39,211 nt of DNA from the IMG/VR virus record IMGVR_UViG_2778261139_000004, positions 1 through 39,211 of that record. One strand, given 5' to 3'. This document shows positions 1,135 through 36,591 of this stretch, in pieces. A model generated the notes under the pieces. That model was given only the letters and a program-made list of their open reading frames with translations. It ran no database searches and had not been told where the DNA came from. Position numbers and translations under genes: made by a program. Each line of letters opens with the position of its first letter. Position 1 is the first letter of the stretch. Source of the stretch: a virus. Lineage: Duplodnaviria; Heunggongvirae; Uroviricota; Caudoviricetes.

Positions 1135-1665
1135 TTACCTTAATTTATCAAGCTCTCGTTTATTTCTTTTATCATGTATATCATTAAGAAATAATATATT
1201 ACTAGCAATGATACTAAATAACGCTATTATTTGTAGATATACTAATAACGCTGTGATAAAAAATCCAAACTTGCAGAACACGTGCTTATGCAAGGAAATG
1301 AAATCCAGATTTGAAAATATAGGTTTCGTTAAATTTATTATAACAATAGAAAATATTACAATAGCTGAAATTATAATGGTTTTCACTATCAGCGTAATTC
1401 GCTCAATATCTTTTTCTGTTTCCTTATGATAGTTTATACTAGTTATTGTTGATGGCTTTACAATTGAACTTACAGCTGCAGGGTAAATATATGCAAGCCA
1501 AATACCTGCAATAGTGAAGATCATTGCAGAAATGTTTTGCAAGGTAGATAAAATATCTTTTATATCTGCATACGTATATTTGTCTCCGAACAAATAAGCA
1601 ATAGCTATAATTGTTAGGAGAAAACATATGTGCAAAATTTTAGGTTTTATAATCATACTATGCAC
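1135..1665 (-). CDS. Small polytopic membrane protein, about four predicted TM helices, function unknown (cargo)
   Basis: 176-aa ORF with four long hydrophobic segments (ILHICFLLTIIAIAYLF, ISAMIFTIAGIWLAYIY, ITLIVKTIIISAIVIFSIVIINL, FFITALLVYLQIIALFSIIASNILFL). AT-rich. Overlaps the upstream gene by 8 nt, suggesting translational coupling. Confidence 0.6.
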   Translation of the reverse strand: MHSMIIKPKILHICFLLTIIAIAYLFGDKYTYADIKDILSTLQNISAMIFTIAGIWLAYIYPAAVSSIVKPSTITSINYHKETEKDIERITLIVKTIIISAIVIFSIVIINLTKPIFSNLDFISLHKHVFCKFGFFITALLVYLQIIALFSIIASNILFLNDIHDKRNKRELDKLR

Positions 1666-2860
1666 CTATTTTATGAATCTGCACTGCTGTATCATTATCA
1701 GCTTCTGGTTGTTCTATTATATCTTCATTTTTAAAACAATTCACCAAATCATTTCTATGAGCTTTTACTACACTCATTAAATATGAAGAAGAGTAATGTT
1801 TGTTTCTGTTAGAAAGGTCAACGTGAATTTCATGGCGATAAACATATTCATCTAACCAAGTAGTTGAACCATTTTTTCCATTTATTTTGAATCCGATGCG
1901 TGCGTGATCATTCCCTACATTCTCATTGTTGTTTTCTGTATCTTCTGAAATAGGATTGTGGTTTTCTATATATTCATCGATGAGTTTAGTGAACTCTTCA
2001 GGCGTAGGCGTTCCTTCGACTAATAATTCAACGCGATGTTTTTTTGATAAAATAGGAGAGCTTCTTGAGAAAACATCTCCAACTGCATCAAATAACTTCT
2101 GCCATTTTTCCCGTGTATCAGGTATGTTTGTTTCTATTACGTCATGGTAAACAATGTGAGTGATTTTTTTACACAGTTCTTCTATGTTTGCTCCACTCGT
2201 GATCATCCTTGTTTGTTTAGTCTGTACTTTAAAAACTAAACTTTCATCATCACCTTGAGAAAAAAGAACACGTTTGTAATGAACGTCTTCAGGTGAGTCA
2301 TTACGAGGACGAGTCATATCTATGACTTTTTTATTAGGATGCTCCATCCTAAAGTCAACGTATGCTTTAATATAATGACAGAAAAGATCTGTATCCGTAT
2401 TAGAACTTGGGAATCGTATGGATGCAATTTTGTTATATTCTGGAATTACCCAATAGTAGCAAGGTACGCCCCAGATATATTTACCGCCACCTTGAGTATC
2501 AGAGGCGGATACAACATTATCTGAAGTGCCGTCAATCTTACTTTCAGCATCTATACCTTGAATATTTCCAGAGTTATCACCAAGCGTTTTCCAGATAACA
2601 AATAGATAATCTCCTGTCGTACTGTCATATGAAATATTTTTACAGTATGCTTTTGTTCTTCTATTATTATCCTTTCCCCATGGAACAGATTGTTCAACTG
2701 TTCTTGAACAGATCCAGCTATGTAAGTTACACAGAACATGGGATAAGTTCTTTTCGACTAATTCCGGCGATTTACCTTGTCGTATTTTATAAAGGCCAAA
2801 CATTTCTAAATCAAAAAATGTTATAATGCCGCGTTCAGTTTTAAAGTTGGTTTTACTCAT
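1658..2860 (-). CDS. Hypothetical 400-aa soluble protein of unrecognised family (cargo, first gene of a two-gene operon)
   Basis: 400-codon ORF in AT-rich DNA between cI and int. No Walker A, HNH, nucleotidyltransferase or other motif I can recognise. Same strand as cI and int. Confidence 0.6.
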   Translation of the reverse strand: MSKTNFKTERGIITFFDLEMFGLYKIRQGKSPELVEKNLSHVLCNLHSWICSRTVEQSVPWGKDNNRRTKAYCKNISYDSTTGDYLFVIWKTLGDNSGNIQGIDAESKIDGTSDNVVSASDTQGGGKYIWGVPCYYWVIPEYNKIASIRFPSSNTDTDLFCHYIKAYVDFRMEHPNKKVIDMTRPRNDSPEDVHYKRVLFSQGDDESLVFKVQTKQTRMITSGANIEELCKKITHIVYHDVIETNIPDTREKWQKLFDAVGDVFSRSSPILSKKHRVELLVEGTPTPEEFTKLIDEYIENHNPISEDTENNNENVGNDHARIGFKINGKNGSTTWLDEYVYRHEIHVDLSNRNKHYSSSYLMSVVKAHRNDLVNCFKNEDIIEQPEADNDTAVQIHKIGA

Positions 2861-5291: not shown

Positions 5292-5525
5292 ATGCGTAAT
5301 ATTGAAACCCTCTCGACTAAAACCGGACCGGATGACGCAGGGCTTAATATTTTACTGACAGAGGCTCGTCTGGAAGAACGCCGGGCAAGGGGTGAGGCAA
5401 TGGCTGCCCGCCTTGATAGCCTGGCGTGTCATATCACATCCCGCCAGCTAAACCACGTCGAAGCGGCAGAACTGCTGCGTGTGACTGCTGAAGCAATCCA
5501 GAACGAAGCGCAGGAGATCCACTAA
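5292..5525 (+). CDS. Hypothetical early protein
   Basis: ATG at 5292 preceded by AGGAG; the ORF track begins at a TTG at 5286. Confidence 0.5.
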   Translation: MRNIETLSTKTGPDDAGLNILLTEARLEERRARGEAMAARLDSLACHITSRQLNHVEAAELLRVTAEAIQNEAQEIH

Positions 5526-5752
5526 TGGCTGATGCAATGGATCTCGTACAGCAGCGCGTTGAAGAAGAACGTCAGCGCCATATCCGTGCTGCCCGTGCCA
5601 AAACACCGGGCGTGTCTCGCGTGCTTTGCATTGAATGTGAAGCGCCAATTCCGCCAGCAAGACGCCGCGTCATTCCGGGAGTGCAGCTTTGCATTACCTG
5701 CCAGGAAATCGCAGAGCTGAAAGGCAAACATTACAACGGAGGTGCTGTATGA
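5525..5752 (+). CDS. TraR/DksA-type C4 zinc-finger protein
   Basis: 75 aa with CIEC ... CITC cysteine pairs (C-x2-C ... C-x2-C); a typical P2-like early-region small zinc-finger protein. Confidence 0.6.
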   Translation: MADAMDLVQQRVEEERQRHIRAARAKTPGVSRVLCIECEAPIPPARRRVIPGVQLCITCQEIAELKGKHYNGGAV

Positions 5753-6606
5753 GCACCATCCTGAAATGGGCGGGTAATAAAACCGCCATTATGTCCGAAC
5801 TGAAAAAACATCTTCCTGCTGGCCCGCGACTGGTTGAACCTTTCGCGGGTTCTTGTGCTGTGATGATGGCGACGGATTACCCCAGCTATCTGGTTGCGGA
5901 TATTAATCCTGATTTAATCAACCTCTATAAAAAGGTTGCTGCTGATTGTGAGGCGTTTATATCTCGCGCCAGAGTTTTATTTGAGGAAGCAAACAGGGAA
6001 GTGGCTTATTACAACATAAGGCAGGAGTTTAATTACTCCACTGAAATTACTGATTTCATGAAAGCAGTATATTTCCTGTATCTCAATCGTCACGGTTACC
6101 GTGGGTTATGTCGCTATAACAAAAGCGGGTATTTCAACATTCCCTACGGTAATTATAAAAATCCGTATTTCCCTGAAAAAGAAATTCGCGCTTTTGCAGA
6201 AAAAGCCCAGCGAGCAACGTTTATCTGCGCCAGCTTTGATGAAACGCTGGCGATGTTGAAGGCGGGGGATGTGGTGTATTGCGATCCGCCTTATGACGGT
6301 ACGTTTTCCGGCTATCACGCTGACGGCTTTACTGAAGATGACCAGTATCACCTGGCATCCGTTCTTGAACATCGGTCATCAGAAGGACATCCGGTCATTG
6401 TTTCTAACAGTGACACATCCCTGATCCGTTCGCTGTATCGCAATTTTACTCACCACTATATCAAGGTAAAACGCAGCATCGGCGTAGCAGCTGGTGAGAG
6501 TAAATCAGCAACAGAAATCATTGCTGTTTCCGGGCCGCGCTGCTGGGTGGGATTTGATTATTCGCGTGGCGTGGATAGTTCTGCCGTGTACGGAGTACGT
6601 GCATGA
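5749..6606 (+). CDS. dam: DNA adenine methyltransferase (Dam-like, N6-adenine)
   Basis: N-terminal LKWAGNK and FAGS motifs and the catalytic DPPY motif (VYCDPPYDG). ATGA start/stop overlap with the upstream gene. Confidence 0.85.
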
Positions 6607-9017
6607 GCCATGCCGATATGAGCAACTGCTGCGGCTTTAAAGAGGCTGCCGCATCGTTCTCATGGAACAGCCCGAAAAAGGCCATTAACCCTTATCTGGA
6701 CCCGGCGGAAGTTGCGCCGGTTTCTGCGCTTTCAAACCTGATCACTCTGTACGCTGCCGATAACGAGCAGGAACAACTGCGCCGCGAGGCACTGAGTGAT
6801 CAGGTCTGGGAGCGTTATTTCTTTAATGAATCCCGTGATCCTGTCCAACGCGAAATAGAACAGGATAAGCTCATTAGCCGGGCAAAGTTGGCGCATGAGC
6901 AGCAGCGTTTTAACCCGGACATGGTCATTCTGGCAGACGTCAGCGTCCAGCCCTCCCATATCAGCAAGCCGCTGATGCAACGTATTGAATACTTCAGCAG
7001 CCTGGGCAGGCCAAAGGCTTATTCCCGCTATTTACGTGAGACGATTAAGCCATGTCTGGAACGACTGGAGCATGTACGCGACAGCCAGCTATCTGCATCT
7101 TTTCGTTTTATGGCAAGCCATGTAGGGCTGGACGGCCTGCTGATTCTGCCTGAAATGAGTCAGGATCAGGTGAAACGCCTGTCTACCCTTGTCGCTGCGC
7201 ATATGAGCATGTGCCTTGATGCAGCTTGTGGTGATTTGTATGCCACCGATGACGTTAAGCCAGAAGAAATCCGCAAGACATGGGAAAAGGTGGCAGCGGA
7301 AACCCTGCGTCTGGATGTCATCCCGCCTGCGTTTGAGCAACTCCGTCGGAAAAGAAACCGCCGTAAACCCGTGCCCTATGAACTCATTCCGGGTTCGCTG
7401 GCGCGTATGTTGTGCGCCGACTGGTGGTACCGGAAATTATGGAAAATGCGTTGCGAATGGCGGGAAGAGCAGTTGCGTGCTGTCTGCCTGGTCAGCAAAA
7501 AAGCATCTCCCTATGTCAGCTATGAAGCCGTGATGCATAAACGTGAGCAGCGCCGCAAGTCACTGGAGTTTTTCCGTTCTCATGAACTGGTGAACGAAGA
7601 GGGCGACACGCTGGATATGGAAGACGTGGTAAACGCCAGCAGCAGCAACCCGGCGCACCGCCGCAATGAGATGATGGCCTGTGTTAAAGGTCTGGAGCTT
7701 ATCGCGGAAATGCGCGGTGACTGCGCCGTTTTCTACACCATTACCTGTCCGTCACGTTTCCATTCCACGCTCAATAACGGCAGACCAAACCCAACCTGGA
7801 CAAATGCGACGGTAAGACAAAGCAGCGATTATCTGGTCGGCATGTTTGCTGCATTTCGTAAGGCGATGCACAAAGCCGGGTTGCGCTGGTATGGCGTGCG
7901 GGTGGCTGAGCCGCATCATGACGGTACAGTTCACTGGCACCTGTTGTGTTTCATGCGCAAAAAAGACCGCCGCGCCATTACTGCATTGTTGCGTAAGTTT
8001 GCCATCCGTGAAGACCGCGAGGAACTGGGTAATAACACTGGTCCACGCTTTAAATCTGAGCTGATAAACCCGCGCAAAGGAACGCCGACAAGCTACATCG
8101 CGAAATACATCAGTAAGAACATTGACGGGCGTGGTCTGGCTGGCGAGATCAGCAAGGAAACGGGTAAATCCCTGCGTGATAACGCTGAATACGTTAATGC
8201 CTGGGCGTCTCTGCATCGTGTTCAGCAATTCCGCTTCTTTGGCATTCCGGGGCGTCAGGCTTACCGTGAACTGCGATTGCTGGCTGGTCAGGCGGCAAGG
8301 CAACAGGGCGACAAAAAAGCAGGTGCGCCGGTACTGGATAACCCGCGCCTTGATGCCATCCTGGCTGCTGCTGATGCTGGTTGTTTTGCCACCTACATCA
8401 TGAAGCAGGGCGGCGTACTGGTTCCCCGCAAATATCACCTCATCAGAACCGCTTATGAAATTAACGAAGAGCCGACCGCCTATGGCGATCACGGCATTCG
8501 TATTTATGGCATCTGGTCACCCATTGCAGAGGGCAAGATCTGCACTCATGCCGTGAAGTGGAAAATGGTTCGTAAGGCCGTTGACGTTCAGGAGGCGGCA
8601 GCCGACCAGGGCGCTTGCGCCCCTTGGACTCGTGGCAATAACTGTCCCCTTGCTGAAAATTTGAACCAGCAGGAGAAAGATAAATCAGCTGATGGGGACA
8701 CCAGAACGGACATTACCCGCATGGATGACAAGGAGTTGCACGATTATCTGCACAGTATGAGCAAAAAAGAGCGCCGGGAACTGGCTGCAAGGTTACGCCT
8801 GGTTAAGCCGAAACGGCGTAAAGACTACAAACAGCGAATTACAGATCATCAGCGACAGCAGCTCGTCTATGAACTGAAGTCCAGAGGATTTGATGGCAGC
8901 GAGAAAGAGGTCGATTTACTCCTTCGCGGTGGCAGTATTCCGTCAGGAGCAGGCCTGCGTATCTTCTATCGGAACCAGCGTTTGCAGGAAGATGATAAGT
9001 GGCGGGATCTGTATTAA
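6603..9017 (+). CDS. A: Replication initiation endonuclease (P2 gpA family, rolling-circle initiator)
   Basis: 804-aa ORF containing the conserved YIAKYISK active-site tyrosine region; ATGA overlap with dam. Confidence 0.85.
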
Positions 9018-10079: not shown

Positions 10080-11015
10080 ATGCAACTAACTTCTAAAATT
10101 ATCAGTAAGTTTAATTATAATAGATTAGCTTTCCAATTACTTTTAAATGAGGCCCCCAAAAAATATAAAGTTTATTATATTCCTAAACGTGGCGCAGGTT
10201 TTCGGGTGATAGCTCAGCCGACAAAGGAACTAAAAAACGTACAGAGATTTATAGTATCTTTGCTACAGCCAAAGCTGCCTGTTCATCATAAGGCAATGGC
10301 ATATGAATATAAAAAAAGTATTAAAGATAATGCATTGTTGCATAAAGATAATAATTATATTCTTAAAATGGATTTTCAGAACTTCTTTAACAAAATTAAA
10401 CCTGATATATTTTTCTCGAAACTTGAGAACACAGGGCTGAAATTGGATTCATTTGATGAGAATACCCTACGTAATTTGCTTTTTTGGCGTCCGGGAAAAA
10501 AGAGAAGTACAACGTTGATATTAAGTGTAGGGGCGCCAAGCTCACCATTTATTAGTAATTTTGTTATGTATGACTTTGACAAGAGTCTTGATGATTGGTG
10601 CCGTAACAATGGTATCACTTATTCAAGGTATGCAGATGATATAACTTTTTCAACTAATATTAAGGATATATTGTGCAGGGTTCCTAAGGTGGTAAAAAAA
10701 ATGTTGTCGCTCCATGTTCCCGGTCTATCAATCAATGAATCTAAAACAATTTTTACATCGATGGCTCATAATCGGCACGTGACTGGTGTAACACTTACAC
10801 CTCAGGGCAATTTATCAATTGGTCGCGATCGTAAAAGGATGCTGTTTGCAAAGATTCATAAATATTCTTTGGGACTCTTATCTTCCGAAGAAATAAATAA
10901 AACCAAAGGGATGATTGCGTTTGCAAATTATTTGGAGGGTGATTTTTTATTAAGGTTACAAAAAAAATATGGTTGTGAGTTAATAACTAAGTTCCTGATG
11001 GAAGGAAACAAATAA
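10080..11015 (+). CDS. Retron-type reverse transcriptase
   Basis: 311 aa with the RT active-site motif YADD (SRYADDITFS), an upstream GAPSSP motif, and the retron-typical VTG motif (NRHVTGV) downstream. AT-rich cargo. Confidence 0.85.
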   Translation: MQLTSKIISKFNYNRLAFQLLLNEAPKKYKVYYIPKRGAGFRVIAQPTKELKNVQRFIVSLLQPKLPVHHKAMAYEYKKSIKDNALLHKDNNYILKMDFQNFFNKIKPDIFFSKLENTGLKLDSFDENTLRNLLFWRPGKKRSTTLILSVGAPSSPFISNFVMYDFDKSLDDWCRNNGITYSRYADDITFSTNIKDILCRVPKVVKKMLSLHVPGLSINESKTIFTSMAHNRHVTGVTLTPQGNLSIGRDRKRMLFAKIHKYSLGLLSSEEINKTKGMIAFANYLEGDFLLRLQKKYGCELITKFLMEGNK

Positions 11016-12649
11016 TGATAAATAAAATGAATTTAGAGACTTGCTATGTTGATTTTTTAGAGTTGGAATCACATGTGATAAACGAGGATTATTTGAAGGA
11101 GTCTGTTGAGCTTCAAAAGCTAATATCTACTTTAAATGAGAGTAAGTTTCATTTAAATAAAATAGGTATACATGATTTTAAACGGATAAGAGAACTACAG
11201 ATTTCTTTAGAAGATGATTTGACTGTTTTTGTCGGGGATAACGGATTCGGTAAAAGCACTATTTTGGATGCAATAGCAATTGTTTTGAGTTGGTTGAGAT
11301 CAAATATTGAAAAGGAGAGTAAGCCTGGTACTTATATTAAAAGCCATGAAGTTAATAACTCTGTTGATGTTGAGTATGCATCAATTGATGCAAATATAAA
11401 ACTCAAGGACTTTAATACCAGTATTTTGATTACTAAAGCGAAAGAGGGGGCATATTATTCTAGAAATAATGAATTGTTGGAGGTAAAAAAACTTGCAAGT
11501 ATTTATAGACTTGTGAATAAATATGTTGATAATGCAAGCTTGCCTTTGATGGCATATTATTCTATTGCGCGTTCTTATATAGGCGGCGGGGTTGATAGGA
11601 AAAGAAAAAATGCTAAAACTAAAACTGTATGGTCAAAATTCGATGTGTATGATGAAATCGAGTTTGACAGAAATGATTTTACCGATTTTTTTCAATGGCT
11701 TGTATTTCTTCATAACAGAGCTTCACAAGAGAAATTGAGTGAGTCACAAACGACAATCAATGCGTTATTTTCAGATATTCAGAGTTTGAAAGCAACATTA
11801 ACTCAACTATCTGCGATTGATAATATTGATTCAACAGTTATAAAAGGTTTAGAGCTTTCGCTTAAAGAAAAATTGAACTACATGAAATCTCTGCAATCAG
11901 GAGAACATAAGTTTAATAATGCAGTATCACTTTATGATAGTGTTATAAATACCATTCTAAAGTTCTTGCCTGAATTTCAGTGGATTAAGCTTGTTTATGG
12001 TGATGATGATTATAAGATTATCCTTAAAAAAGGAGAGGTTGAATTAGATATTCAACAGTTGTCTCAAGGTGAGAAAACTATATTTACTTTAGTTGGTGAT
12101 TTGGCTCGACGTTTAATTTTACTTAATCCAAATTTATCTAATCCTCTATTGGGATATGGGATTGTTTTAATTGATGAAATTGATTTGCATTTGCATCCGC
12201 AATGGCAACAGACAATTATTGAGCGTTTGACATCTACATTCCCAAATGTTCAATTTGTAATTACTACCCATAGCCCACAGGTTTTATCCACTGTTAGCTC
12301 TCGTTCAGTGCGTATTCTACAGGAAGTGGAAGTAGATGGTGTTAATGATTTGATAGTGTCTCACCCCGACTATCAAATAAAAGGTGTTAGTAATCAGGAT
12401 GCACTTTTATATGGAATGAGAACTGATCCTATACCCTCTACTAAAGAAAATGGTTGGCTTGAAGAATATAAAAAATTGGTTGAGCTTAATCGTTATAGCA
12501 GTGACGAGGCTCTTTTGTTAAGAGAAAAAGTTATTAAACATTTCGGATTAGACCATCCTTTAGTTCAAGAGTGTGATGATCTTATATCTGTTTTGGAGTT
12601 CAAAAATAAGATAAATCAGCACTTTTCTGGAAGTAAGGATGTAAAATGA
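11015..12649 (+). CDS. PtuA-like ABC/AAA-type ATPase (Septu-type effector partner of the RT)
   Basis: Walker A GDNGFGKST, Walker B VLIDEIDLHLHP, TTHSP motif. Start overlaps the RT stop. Confidence 0.8.
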   Translation: MINKMNLETCYVDFLELESHVINEDYLKESVELQKLISTLNESKFHLNKIGIHDFKRIRELQISLEDDLTVFVGDNGFGKSTILDAIAIVLSWLRSNIEKESKPGTYIKSHEVNNSVDVEYASIDANIKLKDFNTSILITKAKEGAYYSRNNELLEVKKLASIYRLVNKYVDNASLPLMAYYSIARSYIGGGVDRKRKNAKTKTVWSKFDVYDEIEFDRNDFTDFFQWLVFLHNRASQEKLSESQTTINALFSDIQSLKATLTQLSAIDNIDSTVIKGLELSLKEKLNYMKSLQSGEHKFNNAVSLYDSVINTILKFLPEFQWIKLVYGDDDYKIILKKGEVELDIQQLSQGEKTIFTLVGDLARRLILLNPNLSNPLLGYGIVLIDEIDLHLHPQWQQTIIERLTSTFPNVQFVITTHSPQVLSTVSSRSVRILQEVEVDGVNDLIVSHPDYQIKGVSNQDALLYGMRTDPIPSTKENGWLEEYKKLVELNRYSSDEALLLREKVIKHFGLDHPLVQECDDLISVLEFKNKINQHFSGSKDVK

Positions 12650-13329
12650 AATATCTATCTAGGCAAATGCCAGGGCCTTCCGTTCTTAATAAATTTGACT
12701 ATAGGAGGGATGATTGGAATTCCCTATCATCAAATGATAAAAAAGAAATATGGGAAGAAATAATAAAAATGCAAGGTAAATTATGTGCTTATTGCGAGAA
12801 AAAAATAGAGCATCATAAAAGTGGTGGCAAAAATAAAGTTGAGAGGCATATTGAGCATTTTTACAGGAAAAGTTATTACAAAAATTTAACTTTCGAGTGG
12901 TCTAATTTGTTTGGCTCATGTGGTGAGCCGCAAAGGTGTGGGTTTTATAAGGATAAGCAAAAATATAACGATGATGATTTAATTAAAGCTGATAGACAAA
13001 ATCCAGATGTTTTTTTCCATTTTTTGGAAAATGGTGATGTTCATATTAGAGAAGGCTTGAATGAGAAAGAACACAAAATGGCAGAGGTTACGTTAAGAGT
13101 ATTTAACTTAAACCCGTCCTCAGGAGGAGTCAAGGCGGAAAGAAGACGTGCAATAGAATTAAGCATGACATTAATAAAGGAACTGGTCGGATGTGCATCT
13201 CAGCTTATTGAATCAGGATGTGAAATTGAAGATGTTAGATCTATGGTCTTTGATGAGTTTAAAAAGAATGTAAAAGATAGATGCTTTACCACTGCGATAA
13301 AGCATGTTTTTGAGAATAGAATGCCTTAA
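12646..13329 (+). CDS. PtuB-like HNH-type nuclease
   Basis: CAYCEKKIEHH ... ERHIEHF ... SCGEPQRCG cysteine/histidine pattern consistent with an HNH zinc-finger nuclease. Overlaps the ATPase stop by 4 nt. Confidence 0.65.
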   Translation: MKYLSRQMPGPSVLNKFDYRRDDWNSLSSNDKKEIWEEIIKMQGKLCAYCEKKIEHHKSGGKNKVERHIEHFYRKSYYKNLTFEWSNLFGSCGEPQRCGFYKDKQKYNDDDLIKADRQNPDVFFHFLENGDVHIREGLNEKEHKMAEVTLRVFNLNPSSGGVKAERRRAIELSMTLIKELVGCASQLIESGCEIEDVRSMVFDEFKKNVKDRCFTTAIKHVFENRMP

Positions 13330-20887: not shown

Positions 20888-21281
20888 AGCAGTGCCTTAT
20901 GTCCGCAATAACCCGGACAAACTGCATCTGTTTGTGGATAACGGTTCGCTGGTTGCCACGGGGGCCAGCTCCATGTCATGGGAGTACCGCTATACCCTGA
21001 ACGTGGTGATTGAGGATTTCAGCGGCGACCAGAATCTGCTGATGGCCCCGGTTTTGCTGTGGCTGCGGGATAATCAGCCTGATGCCATCAATAACCCGGC
21101 GTTACGGGAAAAGTTATTCACCTTTGAGGTGGATATTCTGCGCAATGATGTCTGTGATATCAGCCTTAACCTGCAACTGACGGAGCGTGTGCTGGTCAGC
21201 ACTGATGGCAGTGTGTCGAGTGTTGAAGCTGTAGCGGAACCCGATGAACCTGAAGAAATGTGGACGGTGAAACGTGGCTGA
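20850..21281 (+). CDS. R: Tail completion protein R (P2 gpR-like)
   Basis: GTG start at 20850 preceded by AGGAG; the N-terminus (NKPQSLRHALNKAV ... FVDNGS) resembles P2 R as recalled. Confidence 0.75.
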   Translation: MNKPQSLRHALNKAVPYVRNNPDKLHLFVDNGSLVATGASSMSWEYRYTLNVVIEDFSGDQNLLMAPVLLWLRDNQPDAINNPALREKLFTFEVDILRNDVCDISLNLQLTERVLVSTDGSVSSVEAVAEPDEPEEMWTVKRG

Positions 21282-21720
21282 ATTGCAGAAGGTGGACGAC
21301 TGGTTGAGTGCCTTGCTGGCGAATCTGGAGCCAGCCGCAAGAAGCCGTATGATGCGCCAGCTGGCGCAAGAACTGCGCCGGACACAGCAGCAGAACATCA
21401 GGATGCAGCGCAATCCAGATGGCAGTAGTTATGAGCCGCGCAGAGTAACAGCACGCAGCAAAAAGGGGCGCATCAAACGTCAGATGTTTGCAAAGCTGCG
21501 CACCAAAAAATACCTGAAAACTGCCGCCAGCGCCGATTCTGCCAGCGTGCAGTTTGAAGGTAAGGTGCAGCGCATTGCCCGCGTTCATCACTACGGCCTG
21601 CGTGATCGTGTTAGTCGTAAGGGGCCGGAGGTACGTTATGCTGAGCGGCGGCTATTGGGTTTCAACGATGAAACTACTCTTCAAATTAAAACAATTTTAT
21701 CTAGTTACTTAATGGGGTGA
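21274..21720 (+). CDS. S: Tail completion protein S (P2 gpS-like)
   Basis: 148-aa ORF with a GTG start overlapping the R stop; the last codons are AT-rich. Confidence 0.75.
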   Translation: MAELQKVDDWLSALLANLEPAARSRMMRQLAQELRRTQQQNIRMQRNPDGSSYEPRRVTARSKKGRIKRQMFAKLRTKKYLKTAASADSASVQFEGKVQRIARVHHYGLRDRVSRKGPEVRYAERRLLGFNDETTLQIKTILSSYLMG

Positions 21721-21806
21721 AGATTCACGCTTTTGCTAGCTTCTACAAGGTTTTATGCTTCTAAACACTGTATGTTTAATTTGACATATAACTATTTGTA
21801 CAAGCG

Positions 21807-23036
21807 GTGAGTATGAAAAAGCAAGATGAGTCCCCCAAAGCTGATAAATCAAATTTAGATAAAAGTGAGTCTGAACCACCAAAAGCGAACTCTATGGCAG
21901 ATGCCATGGCCATAGCGGCAGAGGTTGCTACGACAGCAACGTCAGTTCAAACATCAACCTTTGCAATTATCGCGGATTTTCTACGTTCAGGTGGTATAGA
22001 AAAACTAACTTCAAATGCTATCAAAAATTTAGAAATAAAAGTAAAGGGCCATTCTCAAGCGACAAGAACTACGGTATTGAGGAACCTGAAGACCTCTTTC
22101 AAAGAGGAGAATTTAGTTCTTGTTTTAGGTGCTGGCATTTCTTTAGATTACAGCATACCAACATGGAGTGAATTATTAAAGCGGCTATTGGCAAGAGCTT
22201 TGGATGATAAAAATGAAAATCAGAAAATGGTATCGGTTTTGTTTAATGAGGTTTTCGGTCCGAACGCACTCATAGCAGCCAGATATCTAAAACTACACTT
22301 TGATGGTATTAATACTCCCTTGGAAAAAGAAATTCAGCATGTTTTGTATGAATATTATCAGGAGGAAGAAAGCAGTACATTGAAAGCAATCAAGAAATTG
22401 TGCATATCGGCAGGCAAGTCACCAGGTCTAGATTCCGTTATTACATATAACTATGATGATATTTTGGAACAGACATTAACTAGAGCTGATGTTGGTATAA
22501 AGTATAAGGTGATTTCAAAGACGGGGCAGCATGCAAAAAATGATGAACTGCCGATCTACCATGTGCATGGCTATCTCCCATTGCAGGGGAAAGTTGAACT
22601 CGATGACACGCTAGTCCTTTCTGATGAAAGCTATCATAGGCAATACATGGATTTATACCATTGGAGCAATATGGTTCAGTTGAATAAATTCAAAGATGGA
22701 AATTGCCTGTTTGTTGGTCATTCCTTTACAGATCCAAACCTCAGAAGGTTGATGGATACAGCCAAAAAACTTAGAGGGAATGATTCTAAACCTCATTATT
22801 TAATTAAGTGTAGACATTCGAAAGAAGATGTGATTGCTAATATTCAAAGAATTGTTAGTGACTCAAGAAATGGATTTGATAATAAACTGAATATTAATGA
22901 GGATGCAATCGCGACCTCTCTTTTACAGACAGTGCATACTTTTGAAGAAATCGATGCTAATTCATTTGGCGTGAATGTTATTTGGATCGACTCTTACGAT
23001 GAGATTGCACCAATACTTAATGATCTAACACAATAA
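21807..23036 (+). CDS. SIR2-like (SIR2_2 / DUF4020-type) domain protein, putative NAD-depleting defence effector (cargo)
   Basis: 409 aa with the SIR2-like motifs VLVLGAGIS ... PTWSELL, ITYNYDDILEQ, IYHVHGYL, LVLSDESY and LFVGHSFTDPNL. AT-rich, inserted between S and V. Confidence 0.75.
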   Translation: MSMKKQDESPKADKSNLDKSESEPPKANSMADAMAIAAEVATTATSVQTSTFAIIADFLRSGGIEKLTSNAIKNLEIKVKGHSQATRTTVLRNLKTSFKEENLVLVLGAGISLDYSIPTWSELLKRLLARALDDKNENQKMVSVLFNEVFGPNALIAARYLKLHFDGINTPLEKEIQHVLYEYYQEEESSTLKAIKKLCISAGKSPGLDSVITYNYDDILEQTLTRADVGIKYKVISKTGQHAKNDELPIYHVHGYLPLQGKVELDDTLVLSDESYHRQYMDLYHWSNMVQLNKFKDGNCLFVGHSFTDPNLRRLMDTAKKLRGNDSKPHYLIKCRHSKEDVIANIQRIVSDSRNGFDNKLNINEDAIATSLLQTVHTFEEIDANSFGVNVIWIDSYDEIAPILNDLTQ

Positions 23037-23047
23037 TCTCCCTAAGT

Positions 23048-23065
23048 TGTGCCAGAAATGGCACA
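23048..23065. promoter_or_regulatory. TGT-N12-ACA dyad, candidate Ogr-dependent late promoter element for the V operon
   Basis: TGTGCCAGAAATGGCACA just upstream of V; could alternatively act as a terminator hairpin for the SIR2 gene. Confidence 0.35.
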
Positions 23066-23113
23066 GCTTTAAATCCTATCCTAATGACGGCAGCATTTGG
23101 CAATCTAATTGCC

Positions 23114-23692
23114 ATGAACGCTCAACTAACAGAAATCATGCGCCTTATCACCAATCTGATCCGCACTGGTGTAGTCACCGAAGTGGACCGGGAAAACTGG
23201 CTTTGTCGGGTGAAAACGGGCGACCTTGAAACCAACTGGATTAACTGGCTGACACTGCGCGCGGGCAAATCGCGCACCTGGTGGAAACCGTCTGTGGGTG
23301 AGCAGGTTGTGCTGTTCAGCCTTGGCGGCAATCTGGAAACCGCGTTTGCCCTGCCTGCGGTCTACTCAAACCAGTTTCCGCCACCTTCAGACTCTGAGGA
23401 CGGTAACGTGACGGAATACCCAGACGGTGGCTGGTTTGAATACGAACCCGCCACCGGGCGCTGGTATGTCAGGGGCATCAAATCCATGGTCATTGAGGCC
23501 ACTGACAACATCACCCTGAAAACCAGTGAGTTTGTACTGGAGGCTGACCGCACGCGCATTAACAGCGAAGTGGTGATCAATGGTGGCGTTACCCAGGGCG
23601 GCGGTGCAATGAGTTCTAACGGAATCGTGGTTGATACGCATCAGCATACAGGCGTCCTGAAAGGCGGTGATACCACCGGAGGCCCGGTATGA
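23114..23692 (+). CDS. V: Baseplate spike/assembly protein V (P2 gpV-like)
   Basis: N-terminus MNAQLTEIMRLITNLIRTGVV resembles P2 V as recalled (... IRTGI ...); the ORF track start at 23084 is upstream of the likely ATG at 23114. Confidence 0.85.
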   Translation: MNAQLTEIMRLITNLIRTGVVTEVDRENWLCRVKTGDLETNWINWLTLRAGKSRTWWKPSVGEQVVLFSLGGNLETAFALPAVYSNQFPPPSDSEDGNVTEYPDGGWFEYEPATGRWYVRGIKSMVIEATDNITLKTSEFVLEADRTRINSEVVINGGVTQGGGAMSSNGIVVDTHQHTGVLKGGDTTGGPV

Positions 23693-25541: not shown

Positions 25542-27022
25542 GCACAAAATTTTATACCCTGCTGACGGATATTGGCGCGGCGAAACTTGCCAGCGCCGCC
25601 GCGCTCGGTGTGCCTTTAAAAATTACCCATATGGCGGTGGGCGATGGTGGCGGAACATTGCCGACGCCGGACGCAAAGCAGAGTGCACTGGTAAATGAGA
25701 AACGCCGGGCTGCGCTGAATATGCTCTATATCGACCCGCAGAACAGCAGCCAGATTATTGCTGAACAGGTGATCCCTGAAAACGAGGGCGGTTGGTGGAT
25801 ACGTGAAGTGGGCCTGTTTGATGAGTCAGGGGCATTGATTGCCGTGGGAAACTGCCCGGAAAGCTATAAACCGCAACTAGCTGAAGGCAGCGGGCGCACC
25901 CAGACCGTGCGCATGGTGCTGATTACCAGCAGTACGGACAATATCACCCTGAAAATCGACCCTGCTGTAGTGCTGGCAACCCGTAAATACGTGGATGATG
26001 AAGTCCTGGAATTAAAGCTGTATGTGGATGACCAGATGAGAAACCACATTGCCGCACAAGATCCTCATACCCAGTATGCGCAGAAACATAATCCGACATT
26101 TACCGGAGAACCAAAAGCGCCGACGCCTGCAGCAGGAAATAACACCACGCGGATTGCGACCACTGAGTTTGTTCAGGCCGCTATTACTGCTCTGATTAAC
26201 GGTGCGCCAGCCACGCTGGACACACTGAAAGAAATTGCCGCAGCCATTAACAATGACCCGAAATTCAGTACCACCATTAACAATGCGCTGGCACTAAAAG
26301 CCCCGCTGTCGAGTCCGGCACTCACCGGAACGCCAACAGCACCTACTGCGGCACAGTCGGTCAACAATACACAGATTGCCACTACAGCTTTTGTGAAATC
26401 AGCGATTGCAGCAATGGTGGGTTCTGCACCTGCGGCACTGGATACACTGAACGAACTGGCGGCGGCATTGGGGAATGATCCGAACTTTGCCACGACAATG
26501 CTTAATGCGCTGGCAGGTAAACAACCGCTGGACAATACGCTTACCAATTTGAGTGGAAAGGATGTAGCTGGTCTTCTCGCATACCTTGGTTTGGGAGAAG
26601 GCTCTGCATTACCTGTTGGTGTGCCTGTTCCATGGCCTTCAGCCACACCGCCAACAGGCTGGCTGAAATGCAACGGTGCGGCATTTTCTGCTGAAGAATA
26701 CCCGGAACTGGCAAAGGCTTATCCAACAAATAAATTACCTGATTTACGCGGTGAGTTTATTCGTGGCTGGGATGATGGGCGCGGGGTGGATTCCTCTCGT
26801 GGTTTGTTGACATCTCAAGACCATTTATTTGCTTCTCATGGGCACTGGTTTGACAAGTACTATGCGCTAACAGGTTTTGATCCAACGGGAGGTCGGTTCG
26901 TAGTTACGGCTGATGCTTTCGGGGAACTTATTACGGCAAATTCAATTTCTACGGTATCGGTTGGTGGTTCTGAAACCCGGCCGCGCAACGTCGCATTTAA
27001 CTATATCGTGAGGGCAGCCTGA
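25538..27022 (+). CDS. H: Tail fibre protein H, with the C-terminal variable part inside the invertible segment
   Basis: 494 aa with Ala/Thr-rich internal repeats; the C-terminal region lies beyond the recombination site at about 26586. Confidence 0.85.
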   Translation: MSTKFYTLLTDIGAAKLASAAALGVPLKITHMAVGDGGGTLPTPDAKQSALVNEKRRAALNMLYIDPQNSSQIIAEQVIPENEGGWWIREVGLFDESGALIAVGNCPESYKPQLAEGSGRTQTVRMVLITSSTDNITLKIDPAVVLATRKYVDDEVLELKLYVDDQMRNHIAAQDPHTQYAQKHNPTFTGEPKAPTPAAGNNTTRIATTEFVQAAITALINGAPATLDTLKEIAAAINNDPKFSTTINNALALKAPLSSPALTGTPTAPTAAQSVNNTQIATTAFVKSAIAAMVGSAPAALDTLNELAAALGNDPNFATTMLNALAGKQPLDNTLTNLSGKDVAGLLAYLGLGEGSALPVGVPVPWPSATPPTGWLKCNGAAFSAEEYPELAKAYPTNKLPDLRGEFIRGWDDGRGVDSSRGLLTSQDHLFASHGHWFDKYYALTGFDPTGGRFVVTADAFGELITANSISTVSVGGSETRPRNVAFNYIVRAA

Positions 27023-27624
27023 TGAATAAAGCCGTATTAAATAGCGAACTCATTACTACAAAGGCAGGAAACATTACCGTTTATAATTTTGATGCTGAGA
27101 CGAAGGAATATCTTTTCACATCAACCGAATATCTTGTTGTGGGTGTCGGTATTCCGGCGTATTCCTGTTTAGATGCTCCTGGTACATATAAGGCTGGTTA
27201 TACTATCTGCCGTTCAGCAGATTTAAAATCATGGGAATATATGCCAGACCATCGCGGTGAAATCGTTTTTAGCACCGAAACAGGGGAATCAAAAGAAATC
27301 ACAGCTCCGGGTGATTACCCTGATAATACAACCACTATCGCCCCGTTAACGCCATACGATAAATGGGATGGTGAGAAATGGGTGACGGATACCGAGGCAC
27401 AGCACGGCGCAGCAGTAGATGCAGCAGAAGCACAGCGCCAGTCGCTGATTGATACTGCAATGGCCTCCATCAGTCTGATTCAGCTGAAATTGCAGGCCGG
27501 ACGTAAACTGACGCAGGCAGAAACAACCCGCCTTAACGCTGTGCTGGATTACATTGACGCGGTGACGGCAACAGATACCAGCACCGCGCCGGATGTCATC
27601 TGGCCTGAACTGCCGGAGGCGTAG
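27022..27624 (+). CDS. G: Tail fibre assembly protein (G-like)
   Basis: 200 aa, ends ... APDVIWPELPEA. Confidence 0.8.
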   Translation: MNKAVLNSELITTKAGNITVYNFDAETKEYLFTSTEYLVVGVGIPAYSCLDAPGTYKAGYTICRSADLKSWEYMPDHRGEIVFSTETGESKEITAPGDYPDNTTTIAPLTPYDKWDGEKWVTDTEAQHGAAVDAAEAQRQSLIDTAMASISLIQLKLQAGRKLTQAETTRLNAVLDYIDAVTATDTSTAPDVIWPELPEA

Positions 27625-28048
27625 GCCATTCAATATCTGGCGCACCGGAAGTATCGACCAGCTCCAGTGCGTCCAGATAATCCAGCCACAAATTATATTG
27701 CGCCAGTTCATCATCTTTCAGACGACCAATAGCGGCTTTACCGGGCCATTGCTTACTGTTCATGTATTCGTTGGCCTGGTTAATTAGTAGCTGTCTTTCT
27801 GATTCAGTAATTTCAATAAGTTCTTCATGCGTGGGTGGAGGAATATCTGCCCACGCAGGCAGCCCATCATCTCCGGCAATACGGATTTTTCCTTGTGGCG
27901 GTTCAGCCATAAACTCACTGATAATATTTTGATTTACTTCCTTAGCGTCTGATAAATCCCATCCCTCTGATTTATATTTATCAATCATATCCACAGGGAA
28001 AAAAGCATTATGCCTTGCGCTATAAACATATTCGTTCATATAAATCAC
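27596..28048 (-). CDS. Alternative tail fibre assembly protein (G') in inverted orientation
   Basis: 150 aa, ends ... APDIEWPTPP, paralogous to the G C-terminus; convergent with G. Confidence 0.75.
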   Translation of the reverse strand: MIYMNEYVYSARHNAFFPVDMIDKYKSEGWDLSDAKEVNQNIISEFMAEPPQGKIRIAGDDGLPAWADIPPPTHEELIEITESERQLLINQANEYMNSKQWPGKAAIGRLKDDELAQYNLWLDYLDALELVDTSGAPDIEWPTPPAVQAR

Positions 28049-28059
28049 CCTGAATAAAA

Positions 28060-28434
28060 TTACTCACCAACAGCCCACCAACTGTAATTCATCGATACCG
28101 TGTCGCTGGTTGATGACGTTCTGTAAGCAGAATTAAAGCCGGTTAACGTTGGGCCTTCTGCAGTCATCACGAACCCTCGCCCAGCGCCTAAAGGCGCACC
28201 GCCATCACCAGAATGAGTAAGCATGGCGCAGTCCGCTTTTTTGGGGAAAGGGATGCTGAATGTAATTCTCATTGTTTGCGTCGATAATGTCGGCGTAACC
28301 GCACCACGACCATATTGCAGGATTTTCCCGTTAGGTAATTTCATCCATCCATCACCACTGGCAAAAGAGGCCATGTCCGGTATCTGATTTTCCCCTGTCC
28401 CCACATCCCGTTTTGCCGCTTCTCCCAAACCAAC
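28060..28434 (-). CDS. Promoterless alternative tail-fibre C-terminal cassette (H'), expressed only after inversion
   Basis: Minus-strand reading frame running from the right crossover site to a stop at 28060; it shares the LGLGE junction with H. The Met in the ORF track is unlikely to be a real start. Confidence 0.55.
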   Translation of the reverse strand, partial: VGLGEAAKRDVGTGENQIPDMASFASGDGWMKLPNGKILQYGRGAVTPTLSTQTMRITFSIPFPKKADCAMLTHSGDGGAPLGAGRGFVMTAEGPTLTGFNSAYRTSSTSDTVSMNYSWWAVGE

Positions 28435-28500
28435 GTTTAAGAAAATGCAGAGATAATGGCTAACTGGCATCATCCCCGGTTTTTATTCAGGGGATTGATC

Positions 28501-29058
28501 ATGCTTATTGGCTATGTACGCGTGTCAACAAATGACCAGAACACCGATTTGCAACGTAATGCACTGAACTGCGCGGGATGTGAGCGGATTTTTGAGGATA
28601 AAATCAGTGGCACTAAGTCCGACAGACCGGGGCTGAAAAAACTGCTCAGGACACTATCGGCAGGAGACACGCTGGTCGTCTGGAAGCTGGACAGGTTGGG
28701 GCGCAGTATGCGGCATCTTGTTACGCTGATAGAAGAGTTGCGCCAGCGTGGCGTGAATTTCCGAAGCCTGACTGACAGTATTGATACCAGTACCCCAATG
28801 GGCCGTTTCTTTTTTCATGTCATGGGTGCCCTGGCTGAAATGGAACGCGAACTGATAGTTGAACGCACTATGGCAGGGCTGGCTGCAGCTCGTGCCAAAG
28901 GCAGAGTAGGTGGACGCCGTCCTAAGTTGACCACCGAACAGTGGGCACAGATTGGACGTTTACTCGAGGCCGGAGAATCAAGACAGCGTATTGCGCTGAT
29001 TTTTGACGTGGGCGTTTCTACCATTTATAGAAAATTTCCGGCGAATAAGAGCAATTAA
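28501..29058 (+). CDS. pin: Serine DNA invertase (Pin/Gin/Hin/Cin family)
   Basis: MLIGYVRVSTNDQNTDLQRNAL ... with the catalytic serine in YVRVSTNDQ, DRLGRS, and a C-terminal HTH; very close to e14 Pin as recalled. Confidence 0.9.
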   Translation: MLIGYVRVSTNDQNTDLQRNALNCAGCERIFEDKISGTKSDRPGLKKLLRTLSAGDTLVVWKLDRLGRSMRHLVTLIEELRQRGVNFRSLTDSIDTSTPMGRFFFHVMGALAEMERELIVERTMAGLAAARAKGRVGGRRPKLTTEQWAQIGRLLEAGESRQRIALIFDVGVSTIYRKFPANKSN

Positions 29059-36356: not shown

Positions 36357-36436
36357 CGCTGCCGCCAATTTGTCGCCATCATTAAAAAACAGTGCTTCTA
36401 ACATCATGATTTTAAAAGGAATAAATTTCAGGCAAC

Positions 36437-36479
36437 AAAAAACCCATCAACCTTGAACCGAAATGGCGGGGTTGATGGG
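36437..36479 (-). terminator. Possible intrinsic terminator downstream of ybjL, at the prophage/host junction
   Basis: On the minus strand, CCCATCAACC ... GGTTGATGGG (10-bp arms) followed by a T-run; the loop is long and the element lies about 110 nt past the ybjL stop. Confidence 0.3.
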
Positions 36480-36591
36480 CTCCACAAAATGGGGACATCA
36501 AAGAAAAGCAGTGGCACTAATTAAGACTGATGCCCTGCGGAAAAGTTCTGCGGTTGTGCAAAAAAATTTCATTTTCAGGGCAACTTCAGTT

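Follow-up and report, generated by a model that had tools for sequence, protein, structure and literature searches.

The window analyzed here, a stretch of 39,211 nucleotides of viral DNA (IMG/VR record IMGVR_UViG_2778261139_000004), contains a complete P2-like prophage, from the integrase gene through ogr, and is 100% identical to sequence of E. coli SC475 (NZ_LR778148). Between the tail-completion gene S and the baseplate gene V of this prophage there is a single gene for a SIR2 family protein. We propose with moderate confidence that this gene is a prophage moron occupying the orf30 slot of P2 and encoding a self-contained NAD+ hydrolase of the immune SIR2 type, which would serve as an abortive-infection defence of the lysogen. 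The slot, the enzyme class with its role in defence, and one-gene defence by an N-terminus plus SIR2 are already known. This SIR2 family, its long residence at S/V across genera, and the recognised defence systems of the slot are undocumented in the literature searched.

Read from GTG 21807, the open reading frame (ORF) encodes 409 amino acids, and read from ATG 21813 it encodes 407. The second start is the one chosen in RefSeq (WP_050491431, 'SIR2 family protein') and gives the MKK beginning that is conserved in homologues; for these two reasons it is favored here. An internal start at Met30 was considered and ruled out, because the variants keep the MKK start but not Met30. The GC content is 0.33-0.40 over the gene (0.37 for the gene as a whole) versus 0.55-0.60 in both flanks. 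This agrees with a preceding reading made from the nucleotide sequence alone (below, the sequence-only reading), which had described a single AT-rich gene at the S/V junction, at 21807-23036 (+), with no adjacent partner gene. The last point also held: both neighbors, S (21274-21720) and V (23114-23692), are structural, and the SIR2 gene is therefore without an adjacent partner. Genes for TIR, HerA, pAgo and SMC proteins were found nowhere in the prophage, and KomA and KomB genes neither beside the SIR2 gene nor elsewhere in the prophage. The features needed for the following analysis are these:

21661-21720, + strand: divergent AT-rich 3′ end of S (last 19 codons), the left border of the module, placed by S alignments and the fall in GC.
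21721-21812, + strand: gap between S and the SIR2 gene, devoid of a terminator and of a consensus sigma-70 promoter.
21813-23036, + strand: stand-alone SIR2_2 (SIRim-type) gene, 407 aa.
21813-22064, + strand: hypervariable N-terminal tail, codons 1-84 (residues 1-27 rich in Lys, Glu and Ser; residues 28-77 low-confidence helices).
22065-23033, + strand: SIR2 catalytic core, codons 85-407 (GAGxS loop at aa 106-110, Asn213, His252, variable helical insert at aa 336-366).
23044-23069, + strand: activator dyad of the late promoter pV, TGT-N12-ACA at 23048-23065 within an 11-bp hairpin, a predicted Ogr/activator site from its fold and P2 spacing.
23099-23116, + strand: pV -10-like GGCAAT (23099-23104) and V ATG (23114), the right border of the module, placed by P2 spacing and the RefSeq start of V.

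The class of the enzyme was assigned from profile and fold comparisons. The protein matched Pfam SIR2_2 (PF13289) with 73.1 bits against a gathering cutoff of 24.5 (E 3e-20); canonical SIR2 (PF02146) gave no match, and the sole other Pfam match at E<=1, DUF5828, was spurious. All motifs quoted in the sequence-only reading are present in the translation (LGAGIS, PTW, TYNYDD, YHVHG, LVLSDESYH and GHSFTDPN). Eleven residues (G106, A107, G108, S110, N213, D215, H250, H252, D307, P308 and N309) are invariant in 31 aligned relatives and again in distant ones, the catalytic N213 and H252 in all 10 distant relatives aligned; invariant alongside these two are the motifs GAGxS, DPNxRR and SFG..W. By alignment, Asn213 corresponds to N112 and His252 to H152 of ThsA. 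In the AlphaFold model, with a mean predicted local distance difference test (pLDDT) score of 72.8, residues 85-407 form a confident core. The best 50 Foldseek matches of this model are all ThsA, KomC or DSR2, while canonical sirtuins score at most 13.6 in the structural comparison and SirTM 9.0. A profile of the 31 relatives, run against the PDB, found ThsA, KomC, SeThsA and human FAM118B. No zinc module was seen; the protein has three Cys and no CxxC. In PADLOC the LmuA model scored 72 bits and the ThsA model 71 bits, each match being confined to the SIR2 portion of the model (for ThsA, profile positions 4-275 of 478); the Dsr1, SIR2-HerA and pAgo-SIR2 models scored weakly. By its profile and its modeled fold the protein is placed in the SIR2_2, or 'SIRim', immune clade. 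The same two lines of evidence rule out a metabolic sirtuin or deacetylase identity and support the sequence-only reading, which had assigned the protein to the immune NADase branch.

The part of the protein ahead of the core has a different character. The sequence-only reading had given it an N-terminal extension of about 95 aa; an extension is present, but it is only about 84 aa long, since residues 85-100 are already part of the SIR2 domain, lying in its first helix and aligning with ThsA residues 10-25. It is hypervariable and contains no conserved domain: a Pfam search returned no match in the tail, and pLDDT is below 50 for residues 1-81. Among the enterobacterial variants identity is 20-50% in the tail versus 84-88% in the core, and nonsynonymous differences per site (pN) are 0.33-0.52 versus 0.08-0.12. 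Synonymous sites are saturated (pS ~0.8), which makes dN/dS ratios uninterpretable, and only the contrast in pN was used; at this level of analysis the catalytic core is shown to be under purifying selection. A second variable segment is the insert at aa 336-366, which is 32-58% identical among the same variants. Family members have between 52 and 125 aa ahead of the first beta-strand. An N-terminal transmembrane anchor was ruled out, as the maximum of the 19-residue Kyte-Doolittle hydropathy (KD19) is 1.22 and is located at the first beta-strand.

Larger domains are found at the same place in distant relatives. Those with 30-34% identity (from Pseudomonas, Aeromonas, Paraburkholderia and Bacteroides) have a conserved N-terminal domain of ~190 aa, and clostridial relatives have an additional Pfam Mrr_N domain (E 1e-16 to 1e-19). 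Such distant relatives are 483-605 aa long (in our numbered set of loci, L173 5113-6930, L165 5164-6945 and L183 5227-6981; also L174-L177, L158, L151 and L154). By its motif FE.F..LL...D..AP.G...E.K the ~190-aa domain may have a PD-(D/E)xK nuclease fold. PADLOC holds no SIR2 fusion to an Mrr-like module. The presence of these domains indicates that the N-terminus is a modular position in this SIR2 clade; the window protein, judged by its sequence, holds there a short, fast-evolving tail with no recognisable domain.

The position of the gene was compared with P2. In the P2 annotation the order from S to V is the O-operon terminator, orf30 (261 aa, nonessential, minus strand), the pV activator-binding site and V, whose first base is annotated as the transcription start. 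The orf30 region is one of three moron regions of P2, together with the TO region (old/tin) and Z/fun, and all three carry horizontally acquired AT-rich genes (PMC6823313, PMC3091744). The SIR2 gene has the same position as orf30, between S and the pV activator site; the 261-aa orf30 product is encoded on the opposite strand and is unrelated, and a search for similarity between the two proteins gave nothing better than E 0.6. In the window the dyad TGTGCCAGAAATGGCACA (23048-23065) begins 11 nt past the SIR2 stop codon, and its center lies 57.5 nt ahead of the V ATG, compared with an annotated distance of 57 nt between activator site and V start in P2. The hairpin at the dyad (-16.9 kcal/mol, z -4.85) is the only strong one near the SIR2 gene, and it is downstream of it. 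The spacing in GCAAT-N9-ATG ahead of V is identical to that of P2. From the dyad position and this shared element it follows that the SIR2 gene fills the orf30 slot precisely and that the pV promoter downstream of it is intact. It lies between the S stop and the pV site, is AT-rich and is absent in some relatives, and is in these respects an orf30-slot moron. The pV activator site may double as the transcript end of the upstream S/SIR2 operon. In empty-slot phages the S-V gap is 72 bp long, lacks a separate terminator and contains another dyad (TGTATCAGCACTGATACA).

The borders of the foreign DNA do not coincide with those of the gene. Up to residue 129 the S proteins hardly differ; beyond it the SIR2-bearing phages share the tail F.D..QIK.IL.RYL, unlike the empty-slot phages. 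The drop in GC begins at the 3′ end of S, and DNA alignments place the same border. The AT-rich module begins inside S (~21661), as shown by the final 19 S codons, which are not those of empty-slot phages; it extends as far as the V start. The dyad variant is kept in all SIR2-bearing loci examined. Taken with the altered S codons, this common variant indicates recombinational replacement within S and V and not precise insertion; in sequence terms it points to the exchange of cargo as a module larger than the gene. In 49 phage records (Klebsiella, E. coli and Salmonella) both flanks are matched at ~91% identity, and the middle 1.3 kb is present in none of them.

The occupancy of the slot was surveyed in the 79 closest S-bearing IMG/VR contigs in which V is present as well. 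The S/V gap is empty (72-78 bp) in 65 of them, AT-rich cargo (GC 0.31-0.37) is present in 13, and one is ambiguous. The cargo includes an identical SIR2 gene (L017), PARIS AriA with AriB/DUF4435 in four loci, a 566-aa AIPR/AbiU-like protein, DUF6216 membrane proteins and other uncharacterised proteins of ~250 aa. Every non-SIR2 cargo, like P2 orf30, is antisense to the late operons (minus strand), and the SIR2 gene alone shares the orientation of those operons. Loci with non-SIR2 cargo at GC 0.31-0.34 are L033 5473-7576, L089 5515-7215, L020 5452-6147, L021 642-1448, L018 5444-6205 and L031 5463-6224. PARIS and the AIPR/AbiU-like gene in the same slot of sister phages support a defence role for the SIR2 gene. 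Since the slot carries PARIS, an AIPR/AbiU-like gene and SIR2, it should count as a third defence hotspot beside old/tin and Z/fun, and its uncharacterised proteins (DUF6216, the others of ~250 aa, and P2 orf30 itself) become defence candidates. Two recent papers on P2 defence hotspots treat only the old/tin and Z/fun loci and not S/V. A Sir2 homologue reported by Vassallo et al. was considered as a possible S/V gene and was rejected: it is not placed there, and the P2-borne systems of that study map to the other two hotspots. Most likely it is the partner of the HerA-like protein of PD-T7-2.

Outside the window, a protein database clustered at 90% identity contained 982 relatives at E<=1e-5. 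The best 120 of these are 274-444 aa long and have SIR2_2 as their only domain. Identity in the enterobacterial clade is 69-77%, and the S/V position and + strand are shared by every locus examined: those of E. coli SC475 and PS10-3, of three contigs with a variant that NCBI names from Raoultella planticola, of one further prophage contig and of an Enterobacter prophage remnant. The ORF is intact in all variants. In the Enterobacter remnant, which lies beside ybjL, S and SIR2 are intact, V is truncated and most phage genes are lost. Retention of an intact SIR2 copy in this decayed element supports a function for the gene and suggests domestication of cargo. The remnant (L005-L008, genes 5458-7479) also contains an FRG-domain gene and a KAP NTPase, and terminase, capsid, lysis, baseplate and tail genes are gone in the stretch examined.

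Other homologues move without a phage. That of Vibrio (P0040) is a single superintegron cassette, with attC/VCR (Vibrio cholerae repeat) copies at L010 5827-5983 and 7244-7384 around the gene at 6001-7245, and the Priestia homologue adjoins GmrSD and an integrase; the remaining genomic contexts have nothing in common with one another. In a scan with one genome per species 182 relatives were found, and the best 80 loci, from many phyla, were used for neighbor counts. No neighbor family within 5 kb recurs in more than four of these loci. Of the Pfam families among 148 nearest neighbors, Resolvase (3), integrase (2) and TIR (2) are the most frequent, and strong matches to defence genes are MkoC, PbeA, Drt8, specificity subunits of type I restriction-modification systems and PDC candidates. 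The prophage cargo slot, the integron cassette and the defence islands are all contexts that point to defence. A preprint on integron defence (10.1101/2024.07.02.601686) does not mention SIR2.

These observations could be accommodated in the following scheme. The SIR2 protein would be made in the lysogen, as we infer, and kept inactive. Infection by a foreign phage would switch it on, probably through an oligomer or filament, such activation being expected by analogy with known relatives. The active enzyme would hydrolyze NAD+ and thereby bring the infected cell, and with it the incoming phage, to a halt by abortive infection or superinfection exclusion; sister lysogens, and hence the prophage, would be protected. 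NADase activity and protection are likewise attributed to the window protein by analogy. Specificity is probably located in the tail (aa 1-84) and the insert (aa 336-366), the former being where distant relatives have larger N-terminal domains; this would also be the presumptive location of the sensor. The window, PS10-3, Enterobacter and Raoultella variants, which have the same core with different tails and inserts, constitute a ready-made set of chimeras for mapping specificity.

Several observations weigh against this proposal. A scan of 21400-23400 found no consensus sigma-70 promoter on the + strand and no terminator. With neither between S and the SIR2 gene, late read-through from the O operon has to be taken as the default mode of expression. 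The orientation of the gene is unusual, all other slot cargo being on the opposite strand. No recognisable sensor domain was found in the protein, either by Pfam or in the AlphaFold model. Only 8 of 5426 complete E. coli genomes contain the gene, and a search of 50,697 phage records gave no close homologue, only one weak match with 32% identity over 30% of the protein. No curated model of PADLOC 2.0 or NCBIfam covers the SIR2 family of the window, and we know of no member of exactly this family that has been assayed. With regard to expression, the only candidate promoter elements are a putative TTGACA hexamer at 21781-21786 and a conserved TGTATG; folding of the S-SIR2 intergenic RNA is not significant (z -1.52), and Rfam gives nothing near the SIR2 gene, its sole match being RybB, outside the prophage.

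A more specific version of the defence proposal would take the sense orientation at face value. According to it the SIR2 protein is minimal and autonomous, the short hypervariable tail and the one variable insert take the place of a dedicated sensor domain in recognising phage and license filament-driven NAD+ depletion, and the gene has long diversified in an overlooked third P2 hotspot. Given its sense orientation, it would also be made with the late genes and so may act in the prophage's own lytic cycle. We put this version forward tentatively, as a possibility open to considerable doubt. Synthesis of a SIR2 effector together with structural genes raises the question of self-triggering. Self-triggering of another prophage-encoded defence is taken up in a Staphylococcus study of the Tha system (PMC11087260).

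Alternatively, the protein could be an orphan effector that is triggered by a small-molecule signal or by a partner encoded in the host, in the way that ThsA responds to TIR-made gcADPR (glycocyclic ADP-ribose) and KomC to KomB and deoxyinosine triphosphate (dITP). The closest structures, KomC and ThsA, are indeed signal-activated, KomC is likewise a bare SIR2 domain, and the missing sensor domain would find an explanation. In two of the 80 loci (L107-L186) the immediate neighbor of a SIR2 protein devoid of SLOG is a ThsB-like TIR protein (E 2e-49), which also favors this possibility. We nevertheless consider it unlikely. The window protein does not continue past its SIR2 domain into a ligand-binding SLOG or Macro domain, no partner is conserved (any given neighbor family is shared by at most four of the 80 loci), and the gene travels as one-gene integron cassette and one-gene prophage cargo across genera. 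For a component dependent on a partner such one-gene mobility would be maladaptive, and this weakens the explanation further.

Less probable still is a role in the lytic cycle of the P2-like phage itself, in which late co-transcription with the O operon would lead to depletion of NAD+, to shut down the host or to hinder P4-type satellites or co-infecting phages. In favor of such a role, the gene has the orientation of the late genes, contrary to other cargo of the slot, it lacks a consensus promoter, S is not followed by a terminator, and a strong hairpin occurs only after the gene, at the pV dyad. However, relatives reside in integron cassettes and chromosomal islands with no phage around them, and the Enterobacter remnant retains an intact copy although most late genes are gone from the stretch examined.

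It could also be supposed that the protein is a sirtuin that modifies proteins, as a deacylase or ADP-ribosyltransferase that would regulate a protein of the host or of a phage and not be a bulk NADase. All SIR2 enzymes have the catalytic Asn/His chemistry in common, and RefSeq calls one homologue 'NAD-dependent protein deacylase', but the fold speaks against such an activity and we regard it as very unlikely. That the gene is non-functional AT-rich hitchhiker DNA, as its rarity in E. coli and foreign composition might suggest, is hardly credible given an ORF intact in all variants, a core with pN of 0.08-0.12 at saturated synonymous sites, invariant catalytic residues and the retention of the gene in a decayed prophage.

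The prophage contains further cargo. A type I-A retron (reverse transcriptase, PtuA ATPase and PtuB HNH; Ec78/St85-like by annotation) is present at 10080-13329 (+), in the old/tin hotspot, with gpA/DinI on one side and the portal gene on the other; Rfam at the gathering threshold detected no msr/msd RNA at the retron. A pair of AT-rich genes matching the PADLOC candidate two-gene system PDC-M18, B and A (173 and 400 aa, GC 0.29-0.37, E 5e-24 and 2e-36), is located at 1135-2860 (-), between the integrase gene and cI, and this may be a fourth cargo site of the prophage. The retron and the PDC-M18 pair add to the defence context of the SIR2 gene. The region ~27022-29058, corresponding to Z/fun of P2, looks like an invertible tail-fibre (host-range) segment: its tail-fibre assembly genes face both ways, and it also has a recombinase-family gene and a gp53-like fragment. 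The integration site of the prophage adjoins rybB and ybjL: the small RNA RybB (Rfam RF00110, 105 bits) is at 36434-36512 (-), ~80 bp past ogr at the right prophage end, and the Enterobacter remnant with the SIR2 homologue abuts the same ybjL side as the window prophage.

Among known systems, the best sequence-level match in the PDB is ThsA of type I Thoeris, a SIR2-SLOG protein (6lhx, E 3e-10). Homology extends over ThsA residues 10-278, that is, the whole SIR2 domain. ThsA continues into a C-terminal ligand domain (SLOG, or Macro), whereas the window protein ends where the SIR2 domain ends and has an additional N-terminal tail of 84 aa. Thoeris also includes ThsB/TIR, of which there is none adjacent to the window gene or in the prophage. 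KomC of the Kongming system is a filament-forming SIR2 NADase of 264 aa; the window protein is 140 aa longer, and KomC works with KomA, KomB and the signal dITP, genes for which are not present in the window prophage.

DSR1 and DSR2 are, like the window gene, single-gene SIR2 NADase defences, and their SIR2 domains superpose with the window model (Foldseek E 1e-10). They are ~1000 aa long with an N-terminal SIR2 domain and a large C-terminal sensor, in contrast to 407 aa and a C-terminal SIR2 domain in the window protein, which scores 29.6 bits with the NCBIfam Dsr1 model against a cutoff of 1400. An operon partner is needed by SIR2-HerA (Nezha), SIR2-pAgo, Lamassu-SIR2 and Kongming (HerA, short pAgo/APAZ, the SMC protein LmuB, and KomA/KomB, respectively), and the window gene has none. 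Avs5 (SIR2-STAND) has a STAND NTPase and a sensor, neither of which is found in the window protein, and human FAM118B works with its paralogue FAM118A, which is not a feature of the window protein. The solved structures of several of the nearest structural relatives are helical or filament assemblies, and the activity of ThsA, Avs5 and FAM118B is reported to depend on filaments (PMC12700824).

The architecture of the window protein is that of sole-Sir2, as far as can be judged from its description: one protein whose N-terminal part has an unknown fold and whose Sir2 domain is C-terminal, encoded without a partner gene. Sole-Sir2 is one of the CRISPR-supervised immune systems, with the described copies inside type I-C cas operons; it converts NAD+ to ADP-ribose in vitro, and a homologue that has no CRISPR link gives E. 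coli protection from T2 and T4 (bioRxiv 10.1101/2024.12.27.630466). It differs from the window protein in its length (~440 versus 407 aa) and in its location in cas operons and not in a prophage. The sequence-only reading had not recognised the layout of the S/V gene as that of a characterised system. As a single gene with no partner it was described correctly, but the orf30 slot, sole-Sir2 and DSR1/DSR2 were already known. If the cloned gene protects, it would be among the smallest self-contained SIR2 defences and a handy one for studying how a bare SIR2 domain senses infection.

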